Assembly (NCBI GenBank): GCA_964355955.1
Contig: CAYHFQ010000012.1
Span: forward strand, 1-31,292
Length of the DNA: 31,292 nt
Source: an uncultured Gammaproteobacteria bacterium
GTDB taxonomy: Bacteria > Patescibacteriota > Patescibacteriia > UBA9934
Reading direction: 5' to 3'
In this document: piece after piece, positions 2,214 through 28,294 of the stretch
Layout: every line of letters begins with the position of its first letter
How positions within the stretch are numbered: position 1 is the stretch's first letter
Made by a program: the position numbers and the translations under genes
Notes under the pieces: model-generated
The model's database searches: none
The model's input: only the letters and a program-made list of their open reading frames with translations
Told to the model about the DNA's origin: nothing

Positions 2214-3431
2214 ATGGATTTTATGCGTGGTCGAGAATTTTCGGGGTATAAGATACCAGAGCATCTGGTTAGACCGTCAAAGGTAGAGATAGATACCGCT
2301 GGGACTGATTTGGCGAATTTGGAAGTTTTAAAGCAACGAGCATTGGTTTCCGAGCCGATTGGGGCAGAAACCTGGGGTTTGGTACTGCCAAAAGGGAAGA
2401 CTTATACGACTGGAGCCGGTTTGGATAATATGTTGTTTGTGGCGCGGGCGCATGAAAGATTGATTGATGTGGCGCAATTAAATACTCAGCAATTGCAGCG
2501 ATTGCTGGAGATGGCCGAGCAGTTACAGCAGGTTTATAAGCAACAAGAAGACCCTAATAATCCGTTAATTTTGCAAACGGTGGCGTTGAATTATCACGCT
2601 AATCCAGTAGCGAGAGATGTTTTTAAGAAAAAGCTAGCGGCCCAAACTTTAAAAGATTTACACTTTCATGTTGTTGGGTTTAGGGCGAGTGATGTGGAAG
2701 GTGAGAAAAAGTTAGAGCGAGAGCAGGTGACTAAGCAAGATTGGCGTGATATTCACGACCCGTTTTTGAAGGTGACAGAAAGATTATGGGCTCAGCCAGC
2801 GGTGCGTGCTAGTCTCATGGAGAACTTACAGATTCTGCGACCGGTAGAACAGGCTGATTTAGCTGGAGTTAATTTTTCTGTGCTACCCGATGAAATAACT
2901 TCACCTGAGTTAGCTAATGACTTGCAGACACTGCATAATAATTATTTGGCCGTATACAAACGAATAGCTGGATTGTTTGTGGATTTGACTAAACAGGATG
3001 CGACTGGGATGCCGCAGCTTTTAGCTGAAGACCAGCGAGTTGAAGCGATTGAGCGGTTTAGGCAAGAATTATTGGCAGAAGCACCAGACGAGGCTTCGAT
3101 TCAGATTTTGTTTAAATGGTTATTGCGGATGAGTAAGATATTAGTTTCGGGTGAGAAGATACGTGATAGCGTGCAGGCAGCAAAGGATAAAACTGTATTT
3201 ATTCGGGACCCGGCTTACACTATGTCGTTAACGCGAGAGTTGGGGAGTGATCAGGTGCTAGTAAATTTAGCACCACGTATATTGTCGACGGGAAACTTTT
3301 TAGCGGCCCTTGGTTTGCATCGAGTGATGGGCGGGGAGGTGACGGCTGAGTGGTTGGCAGAGAGGGAGAAGAATGAGCAGGCGATTGTGAGTCATTTTGC
3401 GGATGAGCGAAGGGAGCTGGCGGCGAAATAG
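2214..3431 (+). CDS. hypothetical protein (405 aa), family not recognised
   Basis: Long ORF with normal composition, followed by an intrinsic terminator. The only motif I noticed is LHFHVVG, a weak HIT-like His-x-His pattern, which is not sufficient for a call. Confidence 0.6.
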   Translation: MDFMRGREFSGYKIPEHLVRPSKVEIDTAGTDLANLEVLKQRALVSEPIGAETWGLVLPKGKTYTTGAGLDNMLFVARAHERLIDVAQLNTQQLQRLLEMAEQLQQVYKQQEDPNNPLILQTVALNYHANPVARDVFKKKLAAQTLKDLHFHVVGFRASDVEGEKKLEREQVTKQDWRDIHDPFLKVTERLWAQPAVRASLMENLQILRPVEQADLAGVNFSVLPDEITSPELANDLQTLHNNYLAVYKRIAGLFVDLTKQDATGMPQLLAEDQRVEAIERFRQELLAEAPDEASIQILFKWLLRMSKILVSGEKIRDSVQAAKDKTVFIRDPAYTMSLTRELGSDQVLVNLAPRILSTGNFLAALGLHRVMGGEVTAEWLAEREKNEQAIVSHFADERRELAAK

Positions 3432-3448
3432 AAGTTTGGTAAAAATAA

Positions 3449-3484
3449 CAAACCCGGCTGCGAGAACAGTCGGGTTTATTTACT
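3449..3484 (+). terminator. bidirectional rho-independent terminator; left border of island 1
   Basis: aacccggctg-cgagaa-cagtcgggtt stem (one G.T pair). It is followed by tttattt on + and preceded by aaaaataaca, which gives a T-run on the minus strand. Confidence 0.7.
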
Positions 3485-3540
3485 ATCATGAGCTTGGTAG
3501 GCAGAGGAGAGAGTCAACCGAGTACCTGGCTGATGATAGG

Positions 3541-3681
3541 AGTTTTGAGCTTTTGAGGGCTCGAGACTCTCGAACGGCGTAATGGGGGATTACGAAGTTG
3601 GAGAGTCCCCGCAAGCTAGCTGTTGTGCACAGAAAGTTGCGGGACGTTGGTGTGTCCCCCGGAGCAAGCTCGACGGGGGAC
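3541..3681 (-). repeat. island-1 intergenic hairpin module, copy 1 (downstream of the 168-aa gene)
   Basis: Minus strand carries GTCCCCCG..CGGGGGAC, then GTCCCGCAA-N22-TTGCGGGGAC, then GACTCTC-N29-GAGAGTC, then CCCTCAAAAGCTCAAAACTCC. Confidence 0.6.
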
Positions 3682-3693
3682 TGGTGGTGGTTT

Positions 3694-4200
3694 CTACCCG
3701 AGGATCGGGTAGGGGTCGGCCGGGTCGTCCCAGGCAAAAACGGGGATGCCGTTTCGCCTGGAGGAGGCGTTCTTGCCGAGGCGCATGAGTTGCACCCCGG
3801 AAAGGGTGAACCTGAGCTTGTGCTCCGTCCCTCCTCCGCCGTAGCCACCACTGCCCGGGGTGGGGTGGGACTCGAAGGTCCAGTCGATCGGCCCGGCGAA
3901 CCGGGCGACTTCCTGGATCCATTCTGCCGCGGCTTCCTCCGAGTGGAGCTTGACGCTCCCCTTGAGGTGGGCGATGCTCACCTGCTGGCCGTAGTGGCCA
4001 CGGGAGGTGACAATCTTGAGCGCGAAGTGCGCTCTAGGAAAGTGGACTTTGGCCTTCCCAGGCAGGCCCTCTTCATCGTCCCCGACGACGTCGGGGACCT
4101 CGATGCTCATGGGAGCACCGAGGTTTTTGTTGAGGAGCTGCGAGAGCTCCCCGACCAGGAAACGGGCGATGAAGGGGAGGTGGATGCGGATGGAAGCCAT
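3694..4200 (-). CDS. hypothetical protein (168 aa), island-1 orphan
   Basis: ATG 4200 has GAAGGAG 6 nt upstream. Third codon positions are almost all G/C. The + ORF 3598..4272 is a shadow. No family recognised. Confidence 0.65.
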   Translation of the reverse strand: MASIRIHLPFIARFLVGELSQLLNKNLGAPMSIEVPDVVGDDEEGLPGKAKVHFPRAHFALKIVTSRGHYGQQVSIAHLKGSVKLHSEEAAAEWIQEVARFAGPIDWTFESHPTPGSGGYGGGGTEHKLRFTLSGVQLMRLGKNASSRRNGIPVFAWDDPADPYPILG

Positions 4201-4317
4201 GATTGCTCCTTCGTGCATTTATGCACAGTGAGCGGCGCCGGGAGTGTTCCCGGTTCATGTATGCCGACCTGAGTAAATTAAACTCAGGATTTCGCGCTTT
4301 TGACGGGATGTCTAAGT

Positions 4318-4397
4318 GCTTTCGAAAACCACAATTAAATAATTATGGGTTTTGAGAGTCCCCGCAAGCTAGCTGTGTGCCAGAAAGTTTGCGGGAC
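4318..4397 (-). repeat. island-1 intergenic hairpin module, copy 2
   Basis: Minus strand carries GTCCCGCAAA-N21-TTGCGGGGAC, then TCTCAAAACC..GGTTTTCGA. The stem is near-identical to copy 1. Confidence 0.6.
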
Positions 4398-4503
4398 GTG
4401 TCCACCGGAGCTGTGCAGCTCGGATGGTTGGATTTGCTGGACGATGCCCGCCAGCGACGGAGTAGACTATGACTGGTCTACCAGCAGTGTTTGGTTGTCG
4501 GGG

Positions 4504-6528
4504 CTAGCGGCGACCGAACTTGCCGAGGAGCAGGGCACGCTCCTCAGCGGACATGGCCCGAGGGGCGGGCTTCTCGGCCGGGGTGGCGGGGGTGGCTTTT
4601 GGCGCGACCGGCTTGCCGAGATTCCAGCCGTTGCCGACGGGGGGTGAGACGGTTCTGCCGGACATGCCGGTTTGACCGTCCCACTCCTTGGCGAGGTTCT
4701 GCTCGAGGTTGGCAACGGTTGCCCGTTGTGCCTCGGTCAGTCCCGCCAGGGGGAGCTTGACCACCTCGAAGCGGTGGTCCGCGGCGCGGTAGTTCTTGAA
4801 CCACCGCAGTGCCAACTCGCCGGCCTCGACTTGGTGCCAGGTGCGACCCTGGTCACCGTCGCGGAGCGAGCCGTCGGGGCGGACAACCCAGGCTTCAACG
4901 AACTTGTCGTCGGTCCTGTACCAGTTGCCGCCGGTGACCTTGAAGTTGGAAAGCGTTCCCGCCTTCGCTTCCTGGGCTCGCTCGGCTGCGACTCGCGCCT
5001 CTTCGGCAGCGACTCGTTCGGCCTCAACCCTGTTGGCTTCGCGTTGGGCCAATTCCTTTGCTTCGCGCTGGGCTTTGAGGGCTTCGAGGTCTGGCTTGAC
5101 CACCGTCTTCCAGTTCTCCAGTTTGACCCAGAGGCCGGAGACAGTTGTCTCGGTCGGCTCAGACTTACCCTCCCACTGGAGGTTGAGCGTCACGCCGTCC
5201 TTGCGGATGGCGAGCAACTCTCCCTCGTGGGTCTGCTCGAGGCTCATCCGCCCATCGTTCCGGAAGAACTGATGGACGGTGACGACCCGGCCGATCCACT
5301 CTGCGGGGATGGCGGCAAAGGGTGCCTGGCCCTTGGCAAGGTATGCCGCGGGATTGGCCGCGGCGTCCCGAGCTTGCCAAAGCTCGGTGGGCTCCGTGGA
5401 AAGGGTGCCACCCTCCCCACAGGAAATTGCCCAGCCCGGATTCCTGTAGGAACCGACGTTCAGGCTTTCACCTGCACGCAGTACCCACAACTCATCCGGA
5501 GTGGACTCGGCATGCCCCGCGGTGCCACCCGCGAAGTTGCCGGCGGCGAGACACGTCGGGTTGCCCCGAAGTATCTCGACCGATCGTGCGACCCGGTTGG
5601 TCAGGGGCGGAGCGATGCGAATGAGCACCGCGCCCGCCTCGATCTGCCCGCTCTGGGTGAGCCCGTAGATGACTTTCGTCTTTTTGGGTTCCCACGAGGG
5701 GGCTGCGACGGCCTGCTCCGAGAGCTTGGCAATCGCGACCGCCTCGAGCCGCTCACCGGGGGTGAACCCGATGATGGCGACCTGGGCCAGGACGCGACCG
5801 CGACCGGTCTCACCGAGCACGACTGCTGGGCCGGTGACGCCAGTCTTCACGCTGATGCCGGGGCGGATTTCGCCGCGTCCGACATAAGTGAAGGTCGACA
5901 TCGACCCGAAGGCCAGGTCGAGCGCTTGGCCTGTGGTTTCGGTCTCGGCAATCACTGCCTCGACCTGGGCCACGGCCACGAGCTGCTCGTAGTCCGCCCA
6001 GGGGCTGGTCTTGACGACCCCGGCTTCATCCACCCAGAGGGCGAAGGAGCTGGTGCCGTTGACCTCGCGGCTGGGGCGAACCTTCAAGACGTCGCCGGGG
6101 CGCATCTTGATGATGCCGTCGTTCCAGCTCCCGATGCGCCCGGCATCGCCGAATGCACCGAAACCGGAGATGAGGGTCTCCGGTGCGCCGGCCACGATGG
6201 ACCAGACGCCGCTTCCGCCGCGGATGTAGCTGGTGTAGGTGTTTACCCTCACCAAGCAGTCCCAGCCGCCGCCGGTGGTGGGGCGCTCCAGGACGTAAAA
6301 CGTCTTGGCGGGCTTGCCGCCGGACGCGGGGAGAGAAACCTTGCGAGGCATCGCCTCCAGGATCTTTCCGTCGACAATGTCGGCAGGGACTCGACGATCG
6401 AGCCCCACCTTTTCATATTGCCTCCCGCGACCTTCTTCGCCCAAGTAGATGACGGCGCCGAGGCGCTCGTCGGACTTGGTGGAAATCCCGGAGGAGAGGC
6501 GGCCTGCGGCCCAGGTGTAGGTTCTCAT
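4504..6528 (-). CDS. hypothetical protein (674 aa) with central Ala/Glu/Arg coiled coil, island-1 orphan
   Basis: ATG 6528 has AGGAG 7 nt upstream and GC3 is very high. The layout is a beta-rich N-terminal ~470 aa, a heptad-like KAQREAKELAQREANRVEAERVAAEEARVAAERAQEAK segment, a C-terminal ~150 aa, and a Pro/Lys/Ala tail. The 654-aa + ORF 4672..6636 is a shadow. Confidence 0.75.
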   Translation of the reverse strand: MRTYTWAAGRLSSGISTKSDERLGAVIYLGEEGRGRQYEKVGLDRRVPADIVDGKILEAMPRKVSLPASGGKPAKTFYVLERPTTGGGWDCLVRVNTYTSYIRGGSGVWSIVAGAPETLISGFGAFGDAGRIGSWNDGIIKMRPGDVLKVRPSREVNGTSSFALWVDEAGVVKTSPWADYEQLVAVAQVEAVIAETETTGQALDLAFGSMSTFTYVGRGEIRPGISVKTGVTGPAVVLGETGRGRVLAQVAIIGFTPGERLEAVAIAKLSEQAVAAPSWEPKKTKVIYGLTQSGQIEAGAVLIRIAPPLTNRVARSVEILRGNPTCLAAGNFAGGTAGHAESTPDELWVLRAGESLNVGSYRNPGWAISCGEGGTLSTEPTELWQARDAAANPAAYLAKGQAPFAAIPAEWIGRVVTVHQFFRNDGRMSLEQTHEGELLAIRKDGVTLNLQWEGKSEPTETTVSGLWVKLENWKTVVKPDLEALKAQREAKELAQREANRVEAERVAAEEARVAAERAQEAKAGTLSNFKVTGGNWYRTDDKFVEAWVVRPDGSLRDGDQGRTWHQVEAGELALRWFKNYRAADHRFEVVKLPLAGLTEAQRATVANLEQNLAKEWDGQTGMSGRTVSPPVGNGWNLGKPVAPKATPATPAEKPAPRAMSAEERALLLGKFGRR

Positions 6529-6604
6529 GATGAACTCCTAGCTCGTAGATCGAGCTGGTGTGAGGCTAGGCCTCGTGGTGAGCGTCGACGCAGGATGCGA
6601 AGAA

Positions 6605-6680
6605 CGACCCTCGAAGTTCACGAGATGAACTCATGAGTTTTGAGAGTCTCCGCAACCAGCTAGTGCTAGTGGTTGCGGGA
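6605..6680 (-). repeat. island-1 intergenic hairpin module, copy 3
   Basis: Minus strand carries CCGCAACCACTAG-ca-CTAGCTGGTTGCGG (13-bp stem), then GAGACTCTCAAAACTCATGAGTTCATCTCGTGAACTTCGAGGGTCGTTC. Confidence 0.6.
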
Positions 6681-6726
6681 TGGTGCATCTGCTCATAACC
6701 CCGAGCGGACGGAGGGGCGAATTTAC

Positions 6727-7068
6727 CTAACGAACCTCCTTGTAGGAGATCGACCAGCTAGAGCGGCTGGTGGTGGACTTCCTGATCTCGGCGGTGCCGA
6801 GCAGGATGAACTTTTCGGTCTGGCCTGTGGGCCAGTAACCGTACTCAAGATTCTCCTCGGCCGCGAAGCCGAAAGACGGATCTTTTTCGGCCAGCCTTAT
6901 GAGCGGGCCGACGAGGTCGATGGTCACGACTAGCCTGGCAATGCCGGGGAGGTCGCAACCGTCGAGGGTCTCGAATACAAATGGCGCCAAAGGCGCCGTT
7001 TGTTTGTCGTAGTTACATCGGCGAATGCCGACGTCGTGTTTCCGTTGTCGTAATTTTTCGCAAGCCAT
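6727..7068 (-). CDS. hypothetical protein (113 aa), island-1 orphan
   Basis: Internal ATG 7068 has AGGAG 7 nt upstream. The track start 7161 is a GTG inside the conserved hairpin. GC3 is high. No family recognised. Confidence 0.55.
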   Translation of the reverse strand: MACEKLRQRKHDVGIRRCNYDKQTAPLAPFVFETLDGCDLPGIARLVVTIDLVGPLIRLAEKDPSFGFAAEENLEYGYWPTGQTEKFILLGTAEIRKSTTSRSSWSISYKEVR

Positions 7069-7126
7069 AGTGGCTCCTGGGCTGAGGTTAGATTGTCCCT
7101 CTAACTTCTCCAGTAATAACGACTGA

Positions 7127-7305
7127 AGAGTTCGGAGGGATCGGGAAACTTGGTGGTGCACACCAGAGGTTTCCCGGGAGAGGGTGAGTGAAGTCAGCCA
7201 GTGACTCCGTGCCGTTCTGTCTAGCTCAGAAGACGTTGGCTAGAAGACCCGCGTGGCCTTTGGCGACTATTTATGTAAGCGCTGTCGTCGGCGCTGTGAA
7301 CCTTG
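7127..7305 (-). repeat. duplicated leader block, copy A (hairpin module copy 4 plus 113-nt conserved block 7193-7305)
   Basis: Hairpin TCGGGAAAC..GTTTCCCGG lies at 7141-7177. The block 7193-7305 matches 8501-8613 at 109/113 positions (my count; all four differences are transitions). Confidence 0.85.
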
Positions 7306-7689
7306 CCGATAGTTGACTCCGTAAGGTTGGGGTGGAAAAGCTGAAGGACGTCAGCTAACGCGATGAAGCAGTCATCTCTGGTCTCGCTGGTATCGAAACG
7401 GTGTAGCACCAGTGACCGTTGGGCCTTAACTACTTTTTATACCGCGCCGTAGTCAGCGCTTGGGTGTCGACGATTGCGACCTCCTTTGGGTTGGGGTTTT
7501 GGTATTGAGAATCAGGAAGATCCTCGATTGACGACTCGAATGTTCTCGGAATAGAGATTCAAGTGGTCGATAGAAGACCCCACCAACGCGATGTGCGTCG
7601 AGCTGGTGGGAAATTCGTGCTGTGACTTTGTTGTGGTTGGGGTGTGATGAACTTGAATAGGAGTCGTCACGTCTCCTGGGAGGCTGCGC

Positions 7690-8289
7690 CTACTGCGCGG
7701 TGGCCTCCTGGAGGGAGGCGAGCTCGGCCGTGAGCCGGGTCACCTCCTTCTTCGCGGAGAAGCCGCTGTACCCCTTTCCGCCCGTGAGGACGAGCTTGCG
7801 CTCGGCCTCGACCAGTGCGGACTTGGCTGCCGCGATCTTGCCGGCTGCCTGGTTCCTCGCGGCCAGTTTTTCGGCAGCGGCGAGGGCCGCCTCCTTCTCG
7901 TCGCGGCGGGCGACCGCGACCTTATGGTCGGCGCGGGCGGCCGTGAGGGCCGCTCCCACCTTGTCGGCGGGGACGGTGCCCACAGAACGGGGAGTGTTGC
8001 AGCACCGATACCAGCCGAGTTCCGTTTCCGCGTTGCGGAGCTTACGCTCCGCGACCAGAACCTGGGCCTCGGCGGCCGCGACCTGCGCGACCGGGGCCGT
8101 GAGGCGGTCCTCTACCGCCTCCGAAAACTCCACCTCCGCGGCCGTGACGGCCGCCTCGAGGTCGAGGGTCTTGGCCGCCGCCGCCACGCGGCGGTTGATC
8201 TCGGCCTCGAGGACGGCGATTTCGCTGGCGAGCAGGGACAGGAGGGGAGCCGCGACGATGGGGGAGGTGCTGGAGATAGATGCGGTCAT
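7690..8289 (-). CDS. Ala-rich coiled-coil protein (199 aa), island-1 orphan
   Basis: ATG 8289 has AGAGGG 5-6 nt upstream and GC3 is high. Long heptad-like Ala/Glu/Lys/Arg segments are interrupted by GWYRCCNTPRSVGTVPADK. The + ORFs 7700..8305 and 7924..8301 are shadows. Confidence 0.65.
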   Translation of the reverse strand: MTASISSTSPIVAAPLLSLLASEIAVLEAEINRRVAAAAKTLDLEAAVTAAEVEFSEAVEDRLTAPVAQVAAAEAQVLVAERKLRNAETELGWYRCCNTPRSVGTVPADKVGAALTAARADHKVAVARRDEKEAALAAAEKLAARNQAAGKIAAAKSALVEAERKLVLTGGKGYSGFSAKKEVTRLTAELASLQEATAQ

Positions 8290-8419
8290 GGGACCCTCTG
8301 ATTGAACGTTGAATGCAGTTGGACTGACGCTAGACATCGAACCGGCCAAATTGCCGATCACAACATTTTGCGTAAATCGTTCTGCGAACGCCCTCGAACT
8401 TCACGATTGGATCAATCAT

Positions 8420-8613
8420 GAGTTTTGAGGGAATCGGGAAACTTGGTGGTGCACACCAGAGGTTTCCCGGGAGATATCGAGTTGGCGCTCGATGCGCAGA
8501 GTCAGTCAGTGACTCCGTGCTGTTCTGTCTAGCTCAGAAGGCGTTGGCTAGAAGGCCCGCGTGGCCTTTGGCGACTATTTATGTAAGCGCTGTCGTCGGC
8601 GCTGTGAACCTTG
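8420..8613 (-). repeat. duplicated leader block, copy B (hairpin module copy 5 plus 113-nt conserved block 8501-8613)
   Basis: Hairpin at 8434-8470 is identical to copy A. Relative to A there is a 28-nt versus 13-nt indel between hairpin and block. The sequence continues as CCCTCAAAACTCATGATTGATCCAATCGTGAAGTTCGAGGGCGTTC on the minus strand. Confidence 0.85.
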
Positions 8614-9369
8614 AAGATGACTTTCTCCAGTGGGCGTATATTGCCCGGTGATGATCTCGCTTCCCGCAGCCTGGATTGACACAGATATGTGCCGTCGCGC
8701 TGGCTGGTGGAGTTAGAGATCGAGTGCTGTGTCGACGTCGACGTTGTACGGGCAGGATTGCCGGGTACTGTCAGCCGTGACTCTGCAGCGCTCTCGAACG
8801 TCACCAGCGAGTGATGAAGTTGGAGAGCCCCTGAAGTAGATGCGAGGCATCACTTCAGGGCTAGGTCCCGTCAACACGAGGGCTGACGGGACACGAGTTA
8901 CGTTGTTCGTAACGTGAAGTATAATTTCCACGGGTTCCTAATGGACGGGCTCGAGAGTTGGCGAATCGGCGCAGGGCGTCGTCGTCAGTCGAGTAACCGT
9001 CGCCGGAAGGGCGCAGATACTTCTGTGTGTTAACTCTTCAGTTGTGAAGGTTCAGTTCCTTTGCCACGGTGGCTAAGCCTTGCGGCTGTTGGTAAGGACT
9101 GCAGGAGGTTCAAAACTGTTTTGAACTCCCGCGCACTCATTACCACGGTTATTTTCTCTGTTGTAACCGGGGGAAGTCTGGTGTGTTGGCCGAGCGTACT
9201 CAGTTACCACTTGCCAGGTTCCGACGTTCCGGCGGAGCCGGAGTGAGAACATAGGTGCTATCGAGTAAAAGTCTCTCTCACCCACTGTGGGGAATTGGCC
9301 TCGAGGGACCAGCTTTTGCTCAATGTCAGCTATGTGAGGGCCTTTTGTTCTCAAGCCTTGCGGCGAGAA
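8614..9369 (-). other. ORF-free, hairpin-dense segment (candidate long structured leader or ncRNA)
   Basis: No ORF over 93 aa on any frame, and none has an SD or island-like GC3. Many perfect stems are present: CCCTGAAGT/ACTTCAGGG 8829-8860, GTCCCGTCA/TGACGGGAC 8866-8891, GTTACG/CGTAAC, and GGTTCAAAAC/GTTTTGAAC ~9107-9127. Two GCC-GCAA-GGC GNRA-capped hairpins lie at 9079-9088 and 9356-9365. Confidence 0.35.
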
Positions 9370-9596
9370 GCAAAAAGGCAGGATTCAGTCTATCTAGTGT
9401 GGGGTTGCCCACGGAGAGAGAATGAATCCTGCCTTGGCAAACGCTACCTATGTAGGCTTGTCTAGTGTGGTACGAAGTAGAGCTGAGCTCACTTCATACC
9501 TGTGCCCCGTTTTTACCGGCACCCGTACTCTCTCTTAAGTTGTAAGGAACTAGTTTCTTGTAGGGCTGTTGGGCTTTCTCGTTCCCCTCAGCTTGT
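9370..9596 (-). ncRNA. candidate ~230-nt small RNA or leader bounded by a consensus promoter and an intrinsic terminator; class not recognised
   Basis: The predicted TSS is ~7 nt after the TATGAT box. The body contains stems GGTAtGAAGT..ACTTCgTACC and GTGCC..GGCAC. The 3' end is the terminator at 9371-9434. There is no ORF. I could not match it to SRP, 6S, tmRNA, T-box or the common riboswitch cores I know. Confidence 0.45.
9371..9434 (-). terminator. intrinsic terminator or attenuator
   Basis: Minus strand has a 12-bp stem AGGCAGGATTCA (9434-9423) / TGAATCCTGCCT (9387-9376). It encloses an inner GTGGG-caac-CCCAC hairpin and is followed by TTTTGCTTCT. Confidence 0.55.
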
Positions 9597-9602
9597 AGAC
9601 AC

Positions 9603-9631
9603 ATCATACCATTTTCTACGACTTCTGTCAA
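9603..9631 (-). promoter_or_regulatory. near-consensus sigma70 promoter pointing into island 1
   Basis: Minus strand has TTGACA (9631-9626), a 17-nt spacer GAAGTCGTAGAAAATGG, then TATGAT (9608-9603), with a TGg extended -10. Confidence 0.7.
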
Positions 9632-9690
9632 CTGCTGTGTGGCATGAATGCTAGAATAAGGCTAAGATTAGCTTATAAATTATCCACACC

Positions 9691-9725
9691 CTGTCATTTA
9701 CATTATGACAGTAAGGTGAAATAAT
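9691..9725 (+). promoter_or_regulatory. putative TrmB-gene promoter (TTTACA-17-AATAAT with TGa) overlapped by palindrome CTGTCAT-N7-ATGACAG
   Basis: The 21-nt palindrome at 9691-9711 covers the -35 hexamer at 9697-9702. It lies ~65 nt from the divergent island-1 promoter. Confidence 0.4.
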
Positions 9726-9790
9726 AGAGCCGGATAGGGTTAAATCAGGGCGGGGGACGGTGACCCCGCCTATTAAAGAGAGGCTATAAT

Positions 9791-10540
9791 ATGTATCAGG
9801 AAATACTGACTAAACTCGGGTTAAACGCGAATGAGGCCCATATTTACGAGCTTTTGCTGACTAAAGGCCGGACTAAGGCCCGGGATTTGCTGACGGATAG
9901 CGGCTTAGGCCGGGGCAACCTCTACAATGTGCTGACTAGTTTGGTCTCCCAGGGCTTGGCGACGGTGACAGAAGGGAAGCAGCAGATATATGAAGCGGCG
10001 GAGCCATCGCATCTCTCAACCCTCGTCGACGACCAGAAACGCCGAGCTGATCGCTTGGCGCAGGAGTTCCAGGGGGAGTTGCCGAAGTTGCTCTCGACGT
10101 TTAATTTAACGACAGGGAAGCCGGCGATTCAGGTGTTTGAGGGGATAGAGGGTGCAGAAATGGCTTTGATGGAATCATTGCAGGCTTCGAAGATAATTTA
10201 TACTTACGTTGATCCATCTACTTTTACCGAAGAAATTAAAGACTTGAACAGACGTTATGTACCTCAGCGTGAAAAGAAGGGAATACAAAAAAAGATTATA
10301 TTATGTGATAGTGAATGGGCACAAAAACATGCGTTAGCAGCTACTACTCAATTAACAGAGTATTTGTTAATTAAAGATTTCCCGCCAATGCACGATGTAG
10401 CCGTGGAAATGTATGATGATACAATTTCATATTTGGGTTTACGCGATGGAAAGACTATTTCTGTGATTGTGCATGATCCAGCAATAGCAAGAATGCATAT
10501 CGCTCAGTTTGAGTTTTTATGGAAAACCTTTAAACATTAA
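9791..10540 (+). CDS. TrmB-family transcriptional regulator
   Basis: N-terminal winged HTH LGLNANEAHIYELLLTKGRTKARDLLTDSGLGRGNLYNVLTSLVSQGL is typical of TrmB (PF01978-like). AGAGAGG lies upstream of the ATG. Confidence 0.75.
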   Translation: MYQEILTKLGLNANEAHIYELLLTKGRTKARDLLTDSGLGRGNLYNVLTSLVSQGLATVTEGKQQIYEAAEPSHLSTLVDDQKRRADRLAQEFQGELPKLLSTFNLTTGKPAIQVFEGIEGAEMALMESLQASKIIYTYVDPSTFTEEIKDLNRRYVPQREKKGIQKKIILCDSEWAQKHALAATTQLTEYLLIKDFPPMHDVAVEMYDDTISYLGLRDGKTISVIVHDPAIARMHIAQFEFLWKTFKH

Positions 10541-12975
10541 GTAGCCTTCTTTTCAAAAACAAAGGCACGCTTTGTCTTGTCTTTGTTTGGCATGTAAAAG
10601 CGTGTTGCTACAAAACCTTTGTCAAACATTTGTTTGCAATACTCAACCATATCTGAAGATTGTGACGGAAGAGAGAAAATGACCGGTGTTTGTTTATTTT
10701 TTGTCATCTCTGATTTTTCTTGATATTTAGTATTTTCTTTGTCATTACGACGTATTTTGAAGCGCAGAGTATTTTGACCAACTGAATCTACGCCGTTGAT
10801 AACGAATTTTTGGTCTTCTACATATGAAGTGCCAGCATCAAGGCCGATAGCGAAATCTGCTAATATGGTGTGTTTTTCGGCTAATGGCTTGAGCACTTCG
10901 TAGAAAAGTTGTTTGCCAAGACCAGAATCTTGAAGTGCTGGATCTACATTCAACGATCCTGCATAAAGTGCGTTTGGTTCTAAGCCTGGTACGTCGTCGA
11001 TACGGATAAAAGCCGCAATTTTGTCATGATATAAAATCATGGTGAAGGTTGAAGGAACATCTCCGGCGAGCGCGTGTTCCATTTTTTCACGTACTCGGGT
11101 AAATTCTGAAGATGACTTCATTTTCCAATTGTCATCAAAGATACGGTACAGATCCTTCTGTTCAAGATCTGTAAGCTCTACTCCTCGACGTTGCAGGAAA
11201 TTAACCCCCTGTAGATTTTCGATAGATAATTGACCTTCTTTGCCAACTGTACGGAGCGAAGAACCGAAAAGAGCCAGGTCGGTATTGCGACGAGCGAGGT
11301 CTTGTTTGAAGGTATCGAGCGTGGGTTTATCTTGTAGCGTGGCGGTGCGGGCTACGTCCTCCATGGCTGTGATGGCGCTGGCGACACGGCGGGTGAGTTC
11401 GTATTTGGCAACGCGACCTTGCTCGGGGGTCATTTGGCCTAAAGTGACGGCGGCAGCGACTTCGGCTAGCATTTGGCGACGGGTGCTACCAGCTTCGATG
11501 ACAGATTCGGCCAGTAAGGTGGCTTCGCTGGTGCGGAGTTCGGCAGCTACACGGAGATATTCGCGAGCGATATCTGGGAGGTCGGCGATTTCAGCGATGC
11601 TTTGGAGACCGGGTTCACCAATCTCTTTGGTGAGAGTGATAATTTGTTCGGTGTAGGGTGCGAGTTTGCTGATATTGCGGCGGAAGTGTTCGCGGGTAGC
11701 TAGGGGGAGGGCTTGGTCGACGTCGAGGCTGGCAGCACGGAGTTCATTATTGAAACCAGCCCAGACTGTTAGATTGTCGATAGCAGCTTTTAGTTCAGGG
11801 TTTTGGGCGGTGTCGACTAAATCGAGTAGGGTTGATTGGGTGAGTTCGACAGGTGCAGCGTAGCTGAGGGCGCCTTGGCCGTTATCGTAAGTTGTGAGCC
11901 GGGCGTCGCCTTTACGGAAGCGATTGATGAGAGAAATAGGCGTGAGGACGCCGTCTTCGTCGAGGACGATGGCCGACTGTTCGGGCGTGAGCTGCTCAAC
12001 CCGGACGGTGTGACCACCGAAGGCTCGACCAAGATTGTGTTTGACGCCGTCTATAGAGAGTAGACCTTTTGATGTGACAAGGCTTGCTTCGAGGCGGGTG
12101 CGAGTTTGGTGACGAGAGGCGGTGAAGTCGCTGTCACGAAGGAGACCTTCGGTGAAGAGGGTGGGGCAGTATTCTTTGAGGGCGGCGAGGGGGCGATCGA
12201 AGAGTAGTCCAGTGGATTTTTCGTTGCCTAGAGCTAGGCCTGGTTGAGCTCGAAACCAGTCGGCTGTTAGGGTATGACGTTTACCATCGTGATAGCGAAC
12301 CTCGAGTTTACCTTGGGCGTTGCGCTTAGCGTCACCAAATTTGGGGTTATATAAAATGGCCGCGACGGCAGTTTCTAAGGCTTTAGAATTATCGAGGGTA
12401 CGAGGAGCTGTAGCTGTTTTAATATCTTTTTTAGATAACCAGTCGGGTAATTCCCAGTAGCCTAAATGAAAGTCAGCGGCCTTGATGGCGTCGACGTCAA
12501 AGGCTTGTTCTTTGGTTTGGGGAGAGTAGACGAGTTGTTTAGCACCGTTTTCTGGTTTGTTGCGTAGTGTAACCGGTTCATCGCCAAAAGCATTAGCTAG
12601 GTAGTCGCCGCGGGTCCGTGAGAATGATTGGCCGTTTTCTGGGACAAAATCGGCGAATTTATGTTTGTTAAAGCGTTCTAGAGAAAAACCGTTTTTTGTT
12701 AGGAATGTGCCTTGCGTCAAGCGATGTTTAACCTGAGCAGAAAATTCAGTACGGGTTATTTTACCGGTTAAGATTTTGGCGATGTCTCGACCTTGAGGGA
12801 CTTCGCCACGCTCTACAGCGGCTTGAAGAAAATGAGTGAGTTCGGTGATGACCTCGGGGCCATAGTCGGCGGCGAGAGCATCAAACATTTGGCCAATATC
12901 TTTGGCTTTAGGTTTCTCTGGAGTGGGAGCGCGTTCTGCGCGACCAAAGCGCTGAGTACCGACCCATAATTCCAT
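10537..12975 (-). CDS. large hypothetical protein (812 aa) with C-terminal GNAT-like acetyltransferase fold motif
   Basis: The C-terminal ~170 aa contain AFIRIDDV..LYAGSLNVDPALQDSGLGKQLFYEVLKPLAEKH, which resembles GNAT motif A (Q/R-x-x-G-x-G/A). I do not recognise the N-terminal ~600 aa. Confidence 0.6.
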   Translation of the reverse strand: MELWVGTQRFGRAERAPTPEKPKAKDIGQMFDALAADYGPEVITELTHFLQAAVERGEVPQGRDIAKILTGKITRTEFSAQVKHRLTQGTFLTKNGFSLERFNKHKFADFVPENGQSFSRTRGDYLANAFGDEPVTLRNKPENGAKQLVYSPQTKEQAFDVDAIKAADFHLGYWELPDWLSKKDIKTATAPRTLDNSKALETAVAAILYNPKFGDAKRNAQGKLEVRYHDGKRHTLTADWFRAQPGLALGNEKSTGLLFDRPLAALKEYCPTLFTEGLLRDSDFTASRHQTRTRLEASLVTSKGLLSIDGVKHNLGRAFGGHTVRVEQLTPEQSAIVLDEDGVLTPISLINRFRKGDARLTTYDNGQGALSYAAPVELTQSTLLDLVDTAQNPELKAAIDNLTVWAGFNNELRAASLDVDQALPLATREHFRRNISKLAPYTEQIITLTKEIGEPGLQSIAEIADLPDIAREYLRVAAELRTSEATLLAESVIEAGSTRRQMLAEVAAAVTLGQMTPEQGRVAKYELTRRVASAITAMEDVARTATLQDKPTLDTFKQDLARRNTDLALFGSSLRTVGKEGQLSIENLQGVNFLQRRGVELTDLEQKDLYRIFDDNWKMKSSSEFTRVREKMEHALAGDVPSTFTMILYHDKIAAFIRIDDVPGLEPNALYAGSLNVDPALQDSGLGKQLFYEVLKPLAEKHTILADFAIGLDAGTSYVEDQKFVINGVDSVGQNTLRFKIRRNDKENTKYQEKSEMTKNKQTPVIFSLPSQSSDMVEYCKQMFDKGFVATRFYMPNKDKTKRAFVFEKKAT

Positions 12976-14493: not shown

Positions 14494-14847
14494 TTAGAGG
14501 GTTATATTGTTGATGAAAGAGTTTAACATGCGCATTGTTTCACTGAGTAGTTCCTCGATCCGTTGTTTTGTGTTTTTTGATAAATACCCGAAATCTTTTG
14601 CTAGAATTAATTGTGTTTCTAATTCAGCTCCCGATCCGTAAGCTATGTAAAGAAATTTTCTGAAGTCTTTTTGACTTCCTCGTCGTGATCCTTCTGCAAT
14701 ATTACTTGGGATAGATATTGAAGCACGTCGCATTTGAGAAGTTAGTCCAAATCTTTCATGATGAGGAAAGGTGTTCGTCAACTGATAAACTTCGCGACAA
14801 ACATCCATGCTCTTTTGCCAAATCAGTAATTCATTATAGGCAGCCAT
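14494..14847 (-). CDS. four-helix-bundle protein (the family formerly called 23S rRNA intervening-sequence protein)
   Basis: 117 aa. LIWQKSMDVCREVYQLTNTFPHHERFGLTSQMRRASISIPSNIAEGSRRGSQKDFRKFLYIAYGSGAELETQL is the characteristic family pattern. Confidence 0.85.
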   Translation of the reverse strand: MAAYNELLIWQKSMDVCREVYQLTNTFPHHERFGLTSQMRRASISIPSNIAEGSRRGSQKDFRKFLYIAYGSGAELETQLILAKDFGYLSKNTKQRIEELLSETMRMLNSFINNITL

Positions 14848-25249: not shown

Positions 25250-25646
25250 AATTGGTGTTCAGGGGGAGCCGATAAGCCGGATTTTGTCATGGACGGTAAT
25301 CTCTCTAGGCCCACGATTGCTCGGGGGCTCAGGCGAACGACCAAACTTGTTCTTGCACCAAGACGGGTTTGCCACAACTCCGTGTCACCACGGGTTGACC
25401 ACTGTAGCGACATAACTGCTATGTCACACCAGTAGACTTTTCACGTTTCACTCGGTCATTGCTGACCGGGCTAGTATAGTCTCTGTGGTACTTTCCCTAG
25501 GCTTTGCGTCTTGCGACGTTTATACCCGATCGCCGTTAGCGATGTCTTTTGGCCCGTAACCTTACGGCTATGGAGGTGTCCGGACTTTCCTCTTGATGGA
25601 GTCGCAAGCGGCTCGCACAAGTAACCGTCTAGCTACCCTGAACGCT
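25250..25646 (-). ncRNA. rnpB: RNase P RNA, bacterial type A
   Basis: Minus strand carries GAGGAAAGTCCGGACACCTCCATAG (25592-25568; compare E. coli GAGGAAAGUCCGGGCUCCAUAG). It also carries ACAAAATCCGGCTTATCGG (25286-25268; compare ACAGAACCCGGCUUAUCGG). The P1 pairing is GTTCAGGG (25643-25636) with CCCTGAAC (25263-25256). Confidence 0.9.
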
Positions 25647-25864: not shown

Positions 25865-26013
25865 TCGGCCACCTCCTCTTCGGGGCTACAGGCGTCCCAG
25901 TCGTCGAGGGTCAACTCGTGAACTCGGCCATCGGCGTGGTGGATGGTAGCCTGGCCGCCTGGTCCGACTACGACCAGGTAGCTGGTCGACGACTTGATCT
26001 TGTCGTCGCTCAT
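25837..26013 (-). CDS. small acidic hypothetical protein (58 aa), island 2
   Basis: ATG 26013 overlaps the upstream stop as ATGA (26013-26010), which suggests translational coupling. GC3 is high. Confidence 0.5.
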   Translation of the reverse strand: MSDDKIKSSTSYLVVVGPGGQATIHHADGRVHELTLDDWDACSPEEEVAECALLLTTG

Positions 26014-26528
26014 GAGCCCACCTGCTGAACCACGTTCTTGCCGGTGGCGATGTCCCAGTAGCGGATCTGCTCGATCAGTCCCGACCAATCCTTGACCGAG
26101 GCCCAAGCAATCTTGGGGCAATCCTCGGGGTCGACGAGCAACAGCAGGTCGGCCGGGACGTTCGGGTAGATCGAAACTTCCTGCCTAGAGCCACTGGCCG
26201 CGAGATGTCGAGGATGGAAAGGGCCCTCGTTATCCCAGACATCGTGGTGCCGGGCGTCGCCGATGATCTCGAGCTTGGCGTTGTCGCCGAACTTGAGGCC
26301 CTTGCCGAGGTCGAGTTCGGTGAGCCTGGCCTCGCCTTGGGTGGCGGTGACGACGATGGCGGCGACCTGGCCGTGGGCGCGACACTCCTCAGCCGTGTTT
26401 GGCGTGAAGCTGACGGTCAGGATGGCCGGCAAGGTGTTGGTGGCGACGAAGCTCGGGTCGATCTCACCGTCAACCGGTGCGCAGGAGGTGGCGAGGCCGA
26501 GGGAAAGGGCGAGGATGAAGTTGCGCAT
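26010..26528 (-). CDS. putative lipoprotein (172 aa), island 2
   Basis: ATG 26528 has GGAGG 5 nt upstream. The signal peptide is MRNFILALSLGLATSC with a relaxed lipobox. The track N-terminal extension crosses the leader repeat. Confidence 0.65.
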   Translation of the reverse strand: MRNFILALSLGLATSCAPVDGEIDPSFVATNTLPAILTVSFTPNTAEECRAHGQVAAIVVTATQGEARLTELDLGKGLKFGDNAKLEIIGDARHHDVWDNEGPFHPRHLAASGSRQEVSIYPNVPADLLLLVDPEDCPKIAWASVKDWSGLIEQIRYWDIATGKNVVQQVGS

Positions 26529-26580
26529 GGGCGCCTCCGAAAGGGGGTGAGGGGTGGGTGGTGAATTTAGGGAGGGAATG

Positions 26581-26656
26581 TCCGCCCTTCGCTGCGCATG
26601 AGCCTTTGATGTTGGAGCTCGTGAACAAGGAAGGGCCGGCCGAGTGTGAGAACTCG
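26581..26656 (-). repeat. island-2 structured leader element, copy 1
   Basis: Minus strand reads CCGAGT-tctcac-ACTCGG, GCCGGCCCTTCCTTGTTCACGAGC...GCTCATGCGCAGCGAAGGGCGGA. P1 is CCCTTC/GAAGGG and encloses a CACGAGC hairpin. Confidence 0.75.
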
Positions 26657-26682
26657 ACGGGACTTGCGGGTGGATGATGAGC

Positions 26683-27078
26683 TCAAGCATTGATGTAACA
26701 CTTGAGGACATCGGTGGCGGCCCTGCTCAACGTCGCGGCGTCGGGCCGGAAATTGCCAGTGGGGCCGAGCACGGAGTCGATGGTGCCGTCGGAGTTGTCG
26801 TCGCCCAGGTGGAGGGTGACGAAGCCGCCGACGTCGCCGTTCGTGTTCTGCACGGTCATGATGAGGTAGAGCGTGCGCAGGCCGTTGTCGCGAACGGTGA
26901 GGCCGACGCTGTTGCTCAAGCCGACTGGGCAGTCGAAGCTGTCAAAGTAGTCGGTGGCACCGTTGACCGCAATGGCTCGGCTGGTGCTGCTCAGCTTGAG
27001 ATCCGCGGCGGCAGCGAGCGCGCTCGGCACAGTGGGTTGGCCGGCGGCGAGGGCGAGGGTGACGAGGGTGGGAATCAT
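26683..27078 (-). CDS. small secreted protein (131 aa, two Cys), island 2
   Basis: GGAG lies 6 nt upstream. The signal-like N-terminus is MIPTLVTLALAAGQPTVPSALAAAAD. GC3 is near-saturated. Confidence 0.65.
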   Translation of the reverse strand: MIPTLVTLALAAGQPTVPSALAAAADLKLSSTSRAIAVNGATDYFDSFDCPVGLSNSVGLTVRDNGLRTLYLIMTVQNTNGDVGGFVTLHLGDDNSDGTIDSVLGPTGNFRPDAATLSRAATDVLKCYINA

Positions 27079-27109
27079 GGGTGCTCCAGAGTTTCAGGGA
27101 AGAGTGATT

Positions 27110-27176
27110 TCCGCCCTTCGCTGGGCACGAGATAGGCTCGTGAACAAGGAAGGGCCGGCCGAGTGTGAGAACTCGG
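27110..27176 (-). repeat. island-2 structured leader element, copy 2
   Basis: Nearly identical to copy 1 outside the inner loop. It abuts the stop codon of the 66-aa gene. Confidence 0.75.
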
Positions 27177-27377
27177 CTAGAGGGAGGCGACAGCGGGGCT
27201 GGTGGGAGCAGGACGGTAGAAGTCCTCCAGACCGGCGTCGTCGCGGTAGATCTGCCAGATGGCAGGGAGAGCTGGCGTGGACTCGGCCGGGATGGCGCCG
27301 AGATCGATGACGACCGGGGCGCTGGCCATGGGCTTGGTGGAAGTGCAGGCCAAAAGGGCAAGGATAAGAAGGGTCAT
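27177..27377 (-). CDS. small lipoprotein (66 aa), island 2
   Basis: MTLLILALLAC has a canonical L-L-A-C lipobox. GGAG lies 9 nt upstream. Confidence 0.6.
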   Translation of the reverse strand: MTLLILALLACTSTKPMASAPVVIDLGAIPAESTPALPAIWQIYRDDAGLEDFYRPAPTSPAVASL

Positions 27378-27412
27378 GGGGTGGCTCCGGTGGCTGGTAG
27401 GGAAGATTGATT

Positions 27413-27488
27413 TCCGCCCTTCGCTGAGCGCGAGAATGGCTCGTGTTCAAGGAAGGGACGGGTAGGTGCGAGAAGGCGCACACTACCC
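27413..27488 (-). repeat. island-2 structured leader element, copy 3 (divergent first hairpin)
   Basis: The core CCCTTCCTTGAACACGAGC..CTCAGCGAAGGGCGGAAATCA is conserved. The upstream hairpin is replaced by GGGTAGTGTGCGCC..GCGCACCTACCC. Confidence 0.7.
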
Positions 27489-27510
27489 AGAACGCGGCTC
27501 ACTGGTGGCC

Positions 27511-27690
27511 CTAGAAGAGGCCAGCCACGAAGTGCCAGGCGAGGGCGATGTCGGTGACGAAGTTGGTGCTGGCGGCGAGCGCGATGCTCGCGTAGGCCAG
27601 GATGATGATCAACATCATGCGGGTTTGACCGCTGGTGATGATGTTGTCGTTGCCGAGGGTGTCGAAGTATGTGACCGGGGTGTTGGACAT
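27511..27690 (-). CDS. small membrane protein (59 aa), island 2
   Basis: ATG 27690 has GGAG 9 nt upstream. A polar 24-aa N-terminus precedes the hydrophobic MMLIIILAYASIALAAS..IALAWHFVAGLF. Confidence 0.5.
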   Translation of the reverse strand: MSNTPVTYFDTLGNDNIITSGQTRMMLIIILAYASIALAASTNFVTDIALAWHFVAGLF

Positions 27691-27823
27691 GGCGGGTGCT
27701 CCGGGAGTTGGTGGGCTGTTCGGCTGCGGAAATGCAGACCGGTGATGCGCAGAACCCGAGGAGACGGGTGGGTTCTGCACACGGCCGGTGCGGCCTCAGT
27801 GAGAGGCCGCGGTGGCGACGAGA

Positions 27824-28228
27824 TCAGCTGCGGTTGTCCGGCAGCTGCCAGCGCCCATCGACTTCCACCAGCTTGATGGGGTGGTCGGCGCACCAGGGCA
27901 AGACCTGGCTCGGCTGCGTGGGTTTGTAGCTCGCGAAGTCGTGGCAGATGTCGCCGACGATGGGGCGCTCTGTCGGGAAGAGGAGCATGCCCACGATGCC
28001 GCCGATGGCTGCGCAGATCATGACTGCCAGGCCGAGGACTGGCCAGGAGAAGATGTCCCAGCTCGTGTACAGGGTCGAGGCGACGCCGATGATGGCACCG
28101 ACCAGCGCACCGATGAAGGACCGGCGGTTGAAGACCGGGATCAGCAGGTCGATGACGAAGAACGTGAAGATGGTGAGGAACAGAAAGACGGTGGTGATGA
28201 CGATGCCGAGGAGGCGAAGAAGGCGCAT
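27824..28228 (-). CDS. integral membrane protein (134 aa, about 3 TM) with Cys/Trp-containing C-terminal tail, island 2
   Basis: ATG 28228 has GGAG 6 nt upstream. GC3 is near-saturated in this frame only. The competing ORFs 27615..28265 (-) and 27812..28255 (+) are Pro/Arg/His- or Asp/Gly-rich shadows. Confidence 0.65.
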   Translation of the reverse strand: MRLLRLLGIVITTVFLFLTIFTFFVIDLLIPVFNRRSFIGALVGAIIGVASTLYTSWDIFSWPVLGLAVMICAAIGGIVGMLLFPTERPIVGDICHDFASYKPTQPSQVLPWCADHPIKLVEVDGRWQLPDNRS

Positions 28229-28265
28229 GGAGACTCCGGGGGTTTGGGGGGATAGTAGCCCACAT

Positions 28266-28294
28266 ATAATAGCAAAAAATGGCCTGTTTGTCAA
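28266..28294 (-). promoter_or_regulatory. sigma70 promoter TTGACA-17-TATTAT (TGc extended -10) driving island 2
   Basis: I counted the spacer AACAGGCCATTTTTTGC as 17 nt. The -35 hexamer sits in the loop of the trpS terminator. Confidence 0.65.

Follow-up and report, generated by a model that had tools for sequence, protein, structure and literature searches.

In phage T7, the early and late transcripts carry intercistronic ribonuclease III (RNase III) hairpins with stems of about 20 bp and internal loops, and after cleavage the 3' hairpin stabilises the upstream RNA. Repetitive extragenic palindromes (REPs) occur throughout a genome in either orientation; they have a GTAG head and are associated with RAYT transposases. 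A two-hairpin geometry is known for the put RNA of phage HK022. For the attC recombination sites of integrons we used the definition of PMC5027507, according to which the AAC/GTT triplet in the R box is the only stretch conserved in all attC sites. In Cluster K mycobacteriophages, imperfect inverted repeats of ~17 bp with a 4-13-bp spacer, the extended start-associated sequences (ESAS), lie directly upstream of a conserved start-associated sequence (SAS) motif (PMC3203893). Here, we describe a locus that shares features with these systems. It is located in a 31,292-nt stretch of DNA (contig CAYHFQ010000012.1, hereafter the window) from a genome of Candidatus Uhrbacteria, a member of the Candidate Phyla Radiation (CPR). 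A gene array on its minus strand is divided into units by six copies of a two-hairpin module, which lie between 3565 and 8860. Tentatively, and with somewhat less than an even chance of being right, we read these modules as intercistronic RNA processing and stabilising signals on one long transcript, whose repetition also drives the shuffling of the cassettes between them.

Each module consists of a GC-rich hairpin, H1, which is followed after 0-5 nt by a second hairpin, H2. The H1 stem comprises 8-13 bp and its apparent loop folds into a nested mini-stem, for example TGGTG-TGCAC-CACCA. H2 is 37-43 nt long, with arms of 17-19 nt and loops of 3-7 nt, and reads CYCTC-N-AA, then a variable palindrome, then TT-C-GARRG. 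The first module, M0, spans 8790-8860 on the minus strand, like all the others (H1 8829-8860, CCCTGAAGT...ACTTCAGGG; H2 8790-8828; 57.2 bits). M1 follows at 8391-8471 (H1 8435-8471, CCCGGGAAAC...GTTTCCCG; H2 8391-8431; 55.1 bits) and M2 at 7097-7178 (H1 7142-7178; H2 7097-7139; 40.7 bits). The H1 of M2 is identical to that of M1, and its region forms a repeat with M1 at 98% identity, whereas the inner palindrome of H2 differs. The remaining modules are M3 at 6606-6678 (H1 6650-6678, CCGCAACCACTAG...CTAGCTGGTTGCGG; H2 6606-6648; 53.6 bits), M4 at 4319-4395 (H1 4361-4395; H2 4319-4358; 54.2 bits) and M5, the last one, at 3565-3643 (H1 3608-3643; H2 3565-3607; 53.8 bits). An earlier note on this DNA had listed five copies on the minus strand, and all five were recovered where it had placed them; it had missed M0 and one more hairpin at 8865-8892, so that the number of modules rises to six. 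The three first-stem sequences it gave were correct, and the M0 stem CCCTGAAGT/ACTTCAGGG is the fourth H1 variant of the window. Its description of the first stem also held, except that the loop of ~20 nt turned out to be the nested mini-stem, and CYCTC does pair back with GARRG in the second hairpin, as it had proposed.

The five modules listed in that note were folded as 91-nt sequences by energy minimisation and compared with 200 dinucleotide shuffles. Each folded as two adjacent hairpins, with z-scores of -6.2, -4.5, -6.1, -2.9 and -6.6, and only 0-1 of the 200 shuffles folded as well as a module. The complementary DNA strand of the modules folds similarly. Equivalent arrays were found in related genomes. 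The nearest relatives of the TrmB-like gene that adjoins the array belong to Candidatus Uhrbacteria and other Patescibacteria, the closest being four species (loci L009-L012, with TrmB proteins 60-78% identical to that of the window) and a second strain of one of them (L095). All five share the layout of a TrmB gene, a non-coding leader of ~900 nt and an array on the opposite strand. From 22 H2 copies of five related genomes we built an alignment and a covariance model, R1. When R1 was searched over the window and 1.28 Mb of Patescibacteria loci, matches of 40-65 bits were confined to these arrays and to the array strand, whereas the reverse strand scored 17-26 bits. No further copy was found in the 31-kb window, either by a regular-expression scan or with the covariance model. 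The family is known from five species of a small clade. The modules had no match in Rfam 15, as only the RNase P RNA (25256-25640) passed the gathering scan of the window, and relaxing the threshold to E<=5 over 3300-9800 returned nothing meaningful. A tRNA scan found none. Two viral and two metagenome pattern scans with the H2 consensus and a leader block gave zero matches; the scanned set evidently lacked the Joint Genome Institute (JGI) contig L088, which carries the array. The literature library that we searched yielded nothing relevant on integrons, cassettes or large RNAs in CPR and Uhrbacteria.

The comparison with relatives was decisive for the structure of H2. The 22 copies align without gaps, and column i pairs with column 52-i. 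Paired cells amount to 79.8% in this alignment versus 67.1% in shuffles and 32-43% in slid controls. Thirteen of the 21 pairs are altered on both sides, in counts that include related sequences, and the covariation score was reached by none of 500 shuffles. The compensatory stem changes claimed in the earlier note are therefore strong once relatives are included, but weak from the window alone: it holds only 3-4 independent H1 variants (M1 equals M2, and M4 resembles M5), which leaves the significance to come from the other genomes. Taken together with the conserved flank, these changes support the module as a non-coding, structure-dependent element, a view that the strand-specific matches of the covariance model corroborate. 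A coding explanation, already considered unlikely in the note, was rejected, as the modules are located between open reading frames (ORFs) and their variation is paired rather than triplet-periodic.

The invariant letters of H2 are the outer CTC/GAG and the AA/TT. Column pair 10-42 is unpaired in 22 of 22 copies (A.C or C.C), column pair 14-38 in 19 of 22, and column pair 18-34 is T.G in 18 of 22. The position following AA/TT covaries freely, with A-U in eight copies, C-G in seven, G-C in three and other combinations in four; in the window, the corresponding triplets are CTT in M3 and TTT in M4. The minimum-energy folds of M1 and M2 adopt a shifted register with one bulged A. Overall, the H2 stem has ~19-21 stacked positions. 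H1 is represented by six or more sequence types; all are hairpins, and the types recur between genomes.

The modules are embedded in what appears to be one transcription unit. Within 3300-9800, the range covered by our promoter and terminator scan, the sole strong promoter on the array strand is a sigma-70 promoter at 9603-9631 (minus strand; TTGACA-N17-TATGAT with a TG extension, 11 of 12 matches), which is kept in six related loci. The same scan listed a divergent promoter for the TrmB gene. An intrinsic terminator could be read directly from the sequence at 3441-3477 (minus strand; AAACCCGaCTG...CAGcCGGGTTT followed by GTTATTTTT), and the scan listed its stem at 3450-3477. This canonical terminator lies ~90 nt past M5, and no internal promoter and no terminator-like module were detected within the array over the scanned range. 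As judged from the sequence, one promoter and one terminator thus bracket the whole array as a single transcription unit. The single-operon layout had escaped the earlier note, as had the hypervariable cassettes, the large structured RNA and the TrmB gene described below.

This layout bears directly on termination. As the note had stated, no T-run follows H1 or H2 in any module; the tails read GGGGACTCTC after H1 and CGCT, TCGT or CACT after H2. A GC-rich stem without a T-run resembles the I-shaped terminators that the note had listed among its candidates. However, a canonical T-run terminator already closes the array, whose expression would be blocked by six internal terminators. The lone promoter and the lone T-run terminator, with no terminator-like module between them, argue that the modules are internal punctuation rather than terminators, and the candidate is disfavoured. 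In a broader form, the modules may slow or shield transcription as factor-dependent or I-shaped attenuators, pause sites, Rho-loading shields or put-like antiterminators on long untranslated stretches. Strong tandem hairpins in the untranslated gaps of an operon of ~6 kb without internal promoter would suit such a role, and two hairpins with a spacer of 0-5 nt recall the HK022 put RNA. Nevertheless, we consider this unlikely, as the modules lack a T-run where the organism's own unit ends at a canonical one, termination at six copies would silence the distal cassettes, and a generic shield or pause does not need a conserved sequence at the H2 base.

The six modules follow six units, namely a leader RNA, the unit A and four ORFan genes. 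M0 follows the non-coding leader and M1 the probably non-coding unit A; hence, the modules mark RNA units rather than ORFs. On this basis, the preferred reading as processing signals can be spelled out. The promoter at 9631-9603 would drive the leader RNA of ~700 nt and then ~5.3 kb of promoterless units up to the terminator at 3477-3441. Each unit, whether the leader RNA, unit A or one of the four ORFan mRNAs, would be followed by H1 and H2. The very stable GC hairpin H1 may serve as protector of the 3' end, and H2 as a recognition site for an endonuclease or another protein, by its geometry of the RNase III type. Cleavage at H2 would then release separately stable units. RNase III sites are stems of about two helical turns with internal loops; with its 19-21 stacked positions, an invariant mismatch, a mostly unpaired position and a conserved U.G pair, H2 has a compatible geometry. 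The modules also resemble the T7 sites as repeated stems of ~20 bp that lie between the cistrons of a long transcript and are similar within one genome. They differ from them in that the T7 sites are single hairpins and not H1-H2 pairs, and there is no sequence similarity. The structure, its covariation, the confinement to the array, the single promoter and terminator and the mosaicism are established by the analysis, whereas we infer the RNA nature of the folded molecule, its cleavage or binding and the type of enzyme involved.

The repeated intergenic sequence around the modules would have a second effect. The whole intergenic frame is repeated at 85-99% identity and could serve as homology for cassette exchange, in which recombination and gene conversion would swap, duplicate and delete cassettes; this may account for the hypervariable gene content. 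In L010, the frame of the modules at 5470 and 8608 is kept from just past the upstream stop codon to just beyond the next ATG, and the two share a 5' untranslated region (UTR) with a ribosome-binding site. Frames that are conserved from the stop codon to the next ATG while the ORFs differ point to expression signals.

Comparison of the junctions revealed extensive mosaicism, as H1 types and H2 inner palindromes are freely combined with one another and with the blocks on their upstream and downstream sides. Breaks 5' of the H2 inner stem were seen between M1 and M2, between M4 and M5, between M5 of the window and its counterpart in L009, and between the L010 module at 8338 and the L095 module at 2641. 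Breaks 3' of H2 occur as well: M0 is kept in five genomes in front of four different downstream sequences, and M1 of the window departs from the L010 module at 8715 in the same way. In the modules L009_7319 and L012_6246, by comparison, the flanks are alike and the inner stem differs. Further breakpoints lie inside the leader (L011 versus L095) and at ORF edges. A single fixed crossover point at the H2 5' arm was therefore dropped, given the counter-examples 3' of H2 and inside the leader. Scattered breakpoints are what homologous exchange predicts, and not what a fixed crossover point would leave behind.

The mosaic also raises the question whether the modules are selfish or neutral palindromic repeats of the REP/bacterial interspersed mosaic element (BIME), miniature inverted-repeat transposable element (MITE) or palindrome-associated transposable element (PATE) type, which spread in the locus and were homogenised by gene conversion without a dedicated function. 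The free combination of intergenic blocks (a U element, six H1 types, H2 inner types and downstream leaders) is what such repeats would show, and some blocks are 90-95% identical between genomes whose backbones are ~85% identical. REP/BIME elements are likewise mosaics of imperfect palindromes in 3' UTRs and inside operons and can stabilise the upstream mRNA. In the sequence examined, however, the copies are restricted to one locus and one orientation, and neither target-site duplications nor a transposase were seen. No GTAG head is visible in the H2 alignment. Moreover, compensatory evolution at orthologous positions and the invariant mismatches indicate purifying selection on a specific structure, the substitutions in the array-only copies being structurally constrained, and distant lineages show the same design of two hairpins in unrelated sequences. 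We therefore regard selfish repeats as a decidedly improbable explanation.

The arrays that carry H1 and H2 also hold a second module family, GAGCTCG...CGAGCTC followed by TCCTCTATCGAC...GTCAATCGAGGA, as well as multi-hairpin junctions. A second two-hairpin family with the outer stem TCCTC-TA/AAT...GAGGA coexists with the first in the L010 array (sense coordinates 5774-5880, 6975-7060 and 8135-8225) and resembles a family of the L007 lineage (L007 14084-14180 and 15101-15190). The distant arrays L007, L013, L014 and L004 contain adjacent hairpin pairs of unrelated sequence. In L004, 3 to ~100 nt are found at the apex of the equivalent hairpin. From these sequences, the design of at least two sense-strand hairpins per junction appears to be more widely conserved than any one sequence. 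Different hairpin sets at other junctions, always on the sense strand, fit structured intercistronic RNA better than a single recombination site. We favour an RNA role for the modules because of this diversity together with the layout of one promoter and one terminator, the presence of a module per RNA unit, the conservation of the frames and the scattered breakpoints.

Several observations weigh against the processing model. If the modules were general RNase sites, they should also occur in other operons, but throughout the 31-kb window and the 1.28 Mb of related loci they were found in the array alone. The H2 base is conserved and lineage-specific, which implies a dedicated partner, for which no candidate emerged. 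Furthermore, the integron-like biology of the locus, with promoterless ORFan cassettes, a reversed HicAB, replacement at the strain level and a high GC content at third codon positions (GC3), is not predicted by the RNA model. The sense strand is not favoured either. Each strand has one conserved wobble and one conserved mismatch, and wobbles outside the conserved column number 12 G.T versus 15 A.C. In folding energy the antisense strand is ahead by a mean of ~1.8 kcal/mol, and the sense strand is the more stable one in only 7 of 23 copies.

The confinement of the modules to a cassette array with integron-like biology is best explained if H2 is an attC-like single-strand recombination site, used by a tyrosine recombinase encoded elsewhere in the genome, with H1 as a cassette-borne 3' structure. 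In the folded strand, a partly unpaired stretch of ~6 positions would serve as spacer between an outer box of ~7 bp and an inner box of ~8 bp, and H2 would be the point at which cassettes leave and enter, by analogy with an integron or a cluster of attC sites lacking an integron-integrase (CALIN). Like the attC sites of sedentary integrons and CALINs, H2 is an imperfect hairpin with conserved outer and variable inner boxes, in which structure is kept over sequence. The conserved outer stem, the inner stem kept by covariation, and the invariant mismatch with the unpaired position all agree with such a site, and the L004 apex recalls its variable terminal structure. There is one site per cassette in one orientation, between promoterless ORFan cassettes that are co-oriented and read from one upstream promoter. 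As in sedentary chromosomal integrons (PMC5027507), the copies of one lineage are homogeneous and were found only in the array. The polarity of the modules remains constant even beside reversed genes, as in L004 and next to HicAB in the L012-type array, and reversed toxin-antitoxin cassettes and rapid turnover are also known from attC arrays. Gene content turns over between species and strains, and H1 and the H2 inner types assort independently (M1/M2, M4/M5, and M5 of the window versus L009), which would suggest joints of recombination at H2.

Nevertheless, H2 is not a canonical attC. Its consensus CYCTC-N-AA / TT-C-GARRG does not match RYYYAAC/GTTRRRY, as a C and not a purine follows the TT, and the AAC/GTT triplet is not conserved in view of the free covariation at its third position. 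Known attC sites are 57 to ~140 nt long, which exceeds the length of H2, and an apex insert of 3 to ~100 nt is found only in the distant L004 array. For the extrahelical bases of attC the picture is mixed, as the arms are gapless in 22 of 22 copies but the minimum-energy folds of M1 and M2 contain one bulged A. It is mixed for the central spacer too: column pairs 10-42 and 14-38 are unpaired in all or most copies, but the three pairs between them do form, so that the presumed spacer is mostly paired. Neither the G:T pairs nor the folding energy shows a strand skew. In addition, an obligatory extra hairpin, H1, lies outside the site, and breakpoints occur on both sides of H2 and elsewhere instead of at one position. 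The promoter-proximal unit is the most conserved one, which is the opposite of insertion at an attI-like site, and, unlike in integrons, a 5' UTR with a ribosome-binding site can be common to different cassettes. In the place of intI and attI, the array has a large structured RNA and a TrmB gene. Neither the large ORFs of the window nor the genes listed for related arrays contained an integrase domain, and no recombinase was seen beside any related array examined. Among possible hidden recombinases, the TrmB protein was rejected, as it matches TrmB regulators only, and so was the neighbouring 812-aa protein with a GNAT domain, which has only a GNAT-like C-terminus in common with its L007 counterpart. 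In our view, an attC-like site is the main rival reading, somewhat less likely than RNA processing. Processing and recombination, both candidates of the earlier note, are not mutually exclusive roles.

A further parallel concerns the starts of the genes. Together with the T7 sites, the ESAS elements are a known precedent for the RNA reading. Like the ESAS elements, the modules lie in one orientation between the genes of an ORFan-rich region, their consensus differs by sub-lineage, and the arms (17-19 nt) and loops (3-7 nt) of H2 are of similar dimensions. In L009-L012 and L095, a common 5' UTR motif, ACCCTTACCATGGGGTTT then AAGGAGGT then the ATG, lies downstream of many H2 copies and in front of unrelated cassette ORFs, which recalls the SAS of these phages. 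In the window, ACCCTTACCATGGGGTTT is not present; its ORFs start 27-117 nt downstream of the modules with no common motif at the start codons, and the last module has no downstream gene. Other differences from ESAS are that the locus is part of a cellular CPR chromosome and not of a phage, that there is no sequence similarity, and that H1 has no counterpart.

The units between the modules vary strongly between genomes. Unit A (8472-8789, minus strand) is probably non-coding, with only a weak ORF of 91 aa and no gene called on its strand, and is conserved in relatives. Its 3' part is duplicated at 7192-7310 (95% identity). The duplication as a whole (7137-7310 and 8430-8618; ~175-190 nt, ~95-98% identical) comprises a multi-hairpin non-coding block, H1 and the first bases of H2; the similarity ends at the H2 5' arm, and in L009, L010 and L012 this H1 type is likewise preceded by the block. 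The four cassette genes are all encoded on the minus strand. Cassette B (7690-8289) encodes an Ala-rich ORFan of 199 aa with a GC3 of 0.89, cassette C (6727-7068) an ORFan of 113 aa, cassette D (4504-6528) a protein of 674 aa with 33 homologues and a structural model with a predicted local distance difference test (pLDDT) score of 83.9, and cassette E (3694-4200) an ORFan of 168 aa with a GC3 of 0.84. For at least 15 array proteins, no convincing family match was obtained in Pfam, PHROGs, NCBIfam or PADLOC. The GC3 of array genes ranges from 0.72 to 0.89, compared with 0.45-0.73 for backbone genes.

Homologues of the 674-aa protein were found in other TrmB-linked arrays (L004, L007) and, in one case, in an ORFan array of a 3.7-Mb genome. 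According to its confident AlphaFold model (pLDDT 84), the protein would be built largely from beta structure and would have a long helix as well as two similar N-terminal halves, and the model had no significant match in PDB or BFVD. Some of the homologues adjoin genes with DEAD/HA2 helicase domains and Gad2 domains. In the ORFan array of the 3.7-Mb genome (L008), a tRNA-like sequence lies directly after a two-hairpin repeat (~8410-8480).

Between genomes, identity is 76-88% in the flanks of the array, which comprise TrmB and the leader up to M0 on one side and the H2 of M5 with the backbone downstream of it on the other. The H2 of M0 is kept at the same position in L009-L012, and the H2 of M5 with its downstream sequence is conserved backbone in L009 and L012, while its H1 varies between genomes. 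The interiors differ, and mainly intergenic blocks of 60-250 nt are common to them; gene content is different among L009, L010, L012, L095 and the window. Between L011 and L095 the backbone is ~99.5% identical, but the arrays differ from ~100 nt before M0 onwards, which amounts to replacement of the whole array. Insertions or deletions of single cassettes were not found at the strain level; the arrays are identical in L088-L091, L012/L094 and L095/L096, and only L011/L095 differ. Reversed HicAB or HicB cassettes occur in related arrays, and in L004 all modules are on one strand though several cassette genes are reversed. Judging from these sequences, the array, with its promoterless and fast-changing set of uncharacterised genes, resembles an integron in layout.

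Upstream of M0, the leader at 8865-9596 (minus strand) is a candidate structured RNA of ~700 nt that ends in hairpin e at 8865-8892. It would represent a new family, with no Rfam match at E<=10 over 8780-9660. From five sequences, RNAalifold predicts 227 pairs, 28 of them with compensatory changes, and hairpin e shows a compensatory change between orthologous copies (pairs 748-765 and 750-763). A model of the 226-nt leader core (9001-9226 in the window) detected homologues upstream of TrmB in ten more Patescibacteria loci with E-values of 3e-5 to 6e-13. In 17 distinct sequences, the core was 92% paired compared with 70% in shuffles, and 47 of 67 pairs were compensatory, in an alignment that was fitted to the model. 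Many of these loci also carry repeated intergenic blocks downstream. The position of this RNA opens the possibility that the modules are the working sites of an undescribed cassette platform without integrase, in which the ~700-nt RNA under a TrmB-like regulator would replace intI and attI and would capture, excise or process cassettes at H2 as a guide, scaffold or ribozyme. We hold this to be improbable, and any part of the leader RNA in cassette handling is pure speculation.

The TrmB-like winged-helix regulator is encoded at 9791-10540 on the plus strand, divergent from the array (Pfam PF01978, E=1.7e-15; PDB 3qph TrmB, E=2e-5). Orthologues with 30-78% identity occupy the same position in L009-L027, and no other protein gene shows a consistent linkage to the array in relatives. 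This linkage suggests that the inverted ends of H2 may form a double-stranded operator by which the regulator silences or regulates each cassette, all the more as the consensus of the H2 base differs by lineage in the way the TrmB sequences do. However, the covariation of the inner stem is not needed for an operator, a difficulty that applies to any double-stranded protein-binding site, which had been another candidate of the earlier note, and leaves that covariation unexplained. The half-sites would lie 17-25 bp apart, and typical palindromes of another kind than H2 are present in the TrmB/leader promoter region. An operator function of H2 is thus highly improbable. In the TrmB/leader intergenic region (9632-9790), conserved palindromes (CTGTCAT-N7-ATGACAG and GCTAA-TC-TTAGC) are situated between the two divergent promoters, and these are the likely TrmB binding sites as far as their sequence indicates.

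The surroundings of the locus contain further features. The 812-aa protein mentioned above (10537-12975, minus strand) is convergent with TrmB and has its GNAT domain at the C-terminus; L007 and L004 likewise encode a large convergent protein, with a GNAT-like C-terminus (27% identity) in the former and methyltransferase domains in the latter. On the other side, the array terminator is separated from rluB by an ORFan of 405 aa (2214-3431, plus strand; GC content 0.46) without a family match. L009 and L012 lack this gene at the corresponding position, and hence it represents a separate insertion. A 117-aa protein (14494-14847, minus strand) matches 23S_rRNA_IVP and bAvd, the accessory protein fold of diversity-generating retroelements, and no reverse transcriptase was seen near its gene. 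A second high-GC stretch (26000-28300; GC content 0.63) with ORFans of 233 and 216 aa adjoins the RNase P RNA gene and has no H1/H2 modules.

The CPR or Patescibacteria have tiny genomes and depend on host cells, and little is understood of how they acquire and replace accessory genes. The locus described here is a hotspot of ORFan turnover that persists across a lineage and is built like an integron. It provides a covariance model with which arrays can be found, sites for end mapping and a new family of large RNAs. If the modules are recombination sites, attC-like biology would extend beyond the known attC rules, and if the leader RNA took part in cassette handling, the locus would be an RNA-centred counterpart of the integron. 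If, as we tentatively prefer, they are RNA processing signals, the locus would constitute a modular expression frame into which unrelated genes are swapped.

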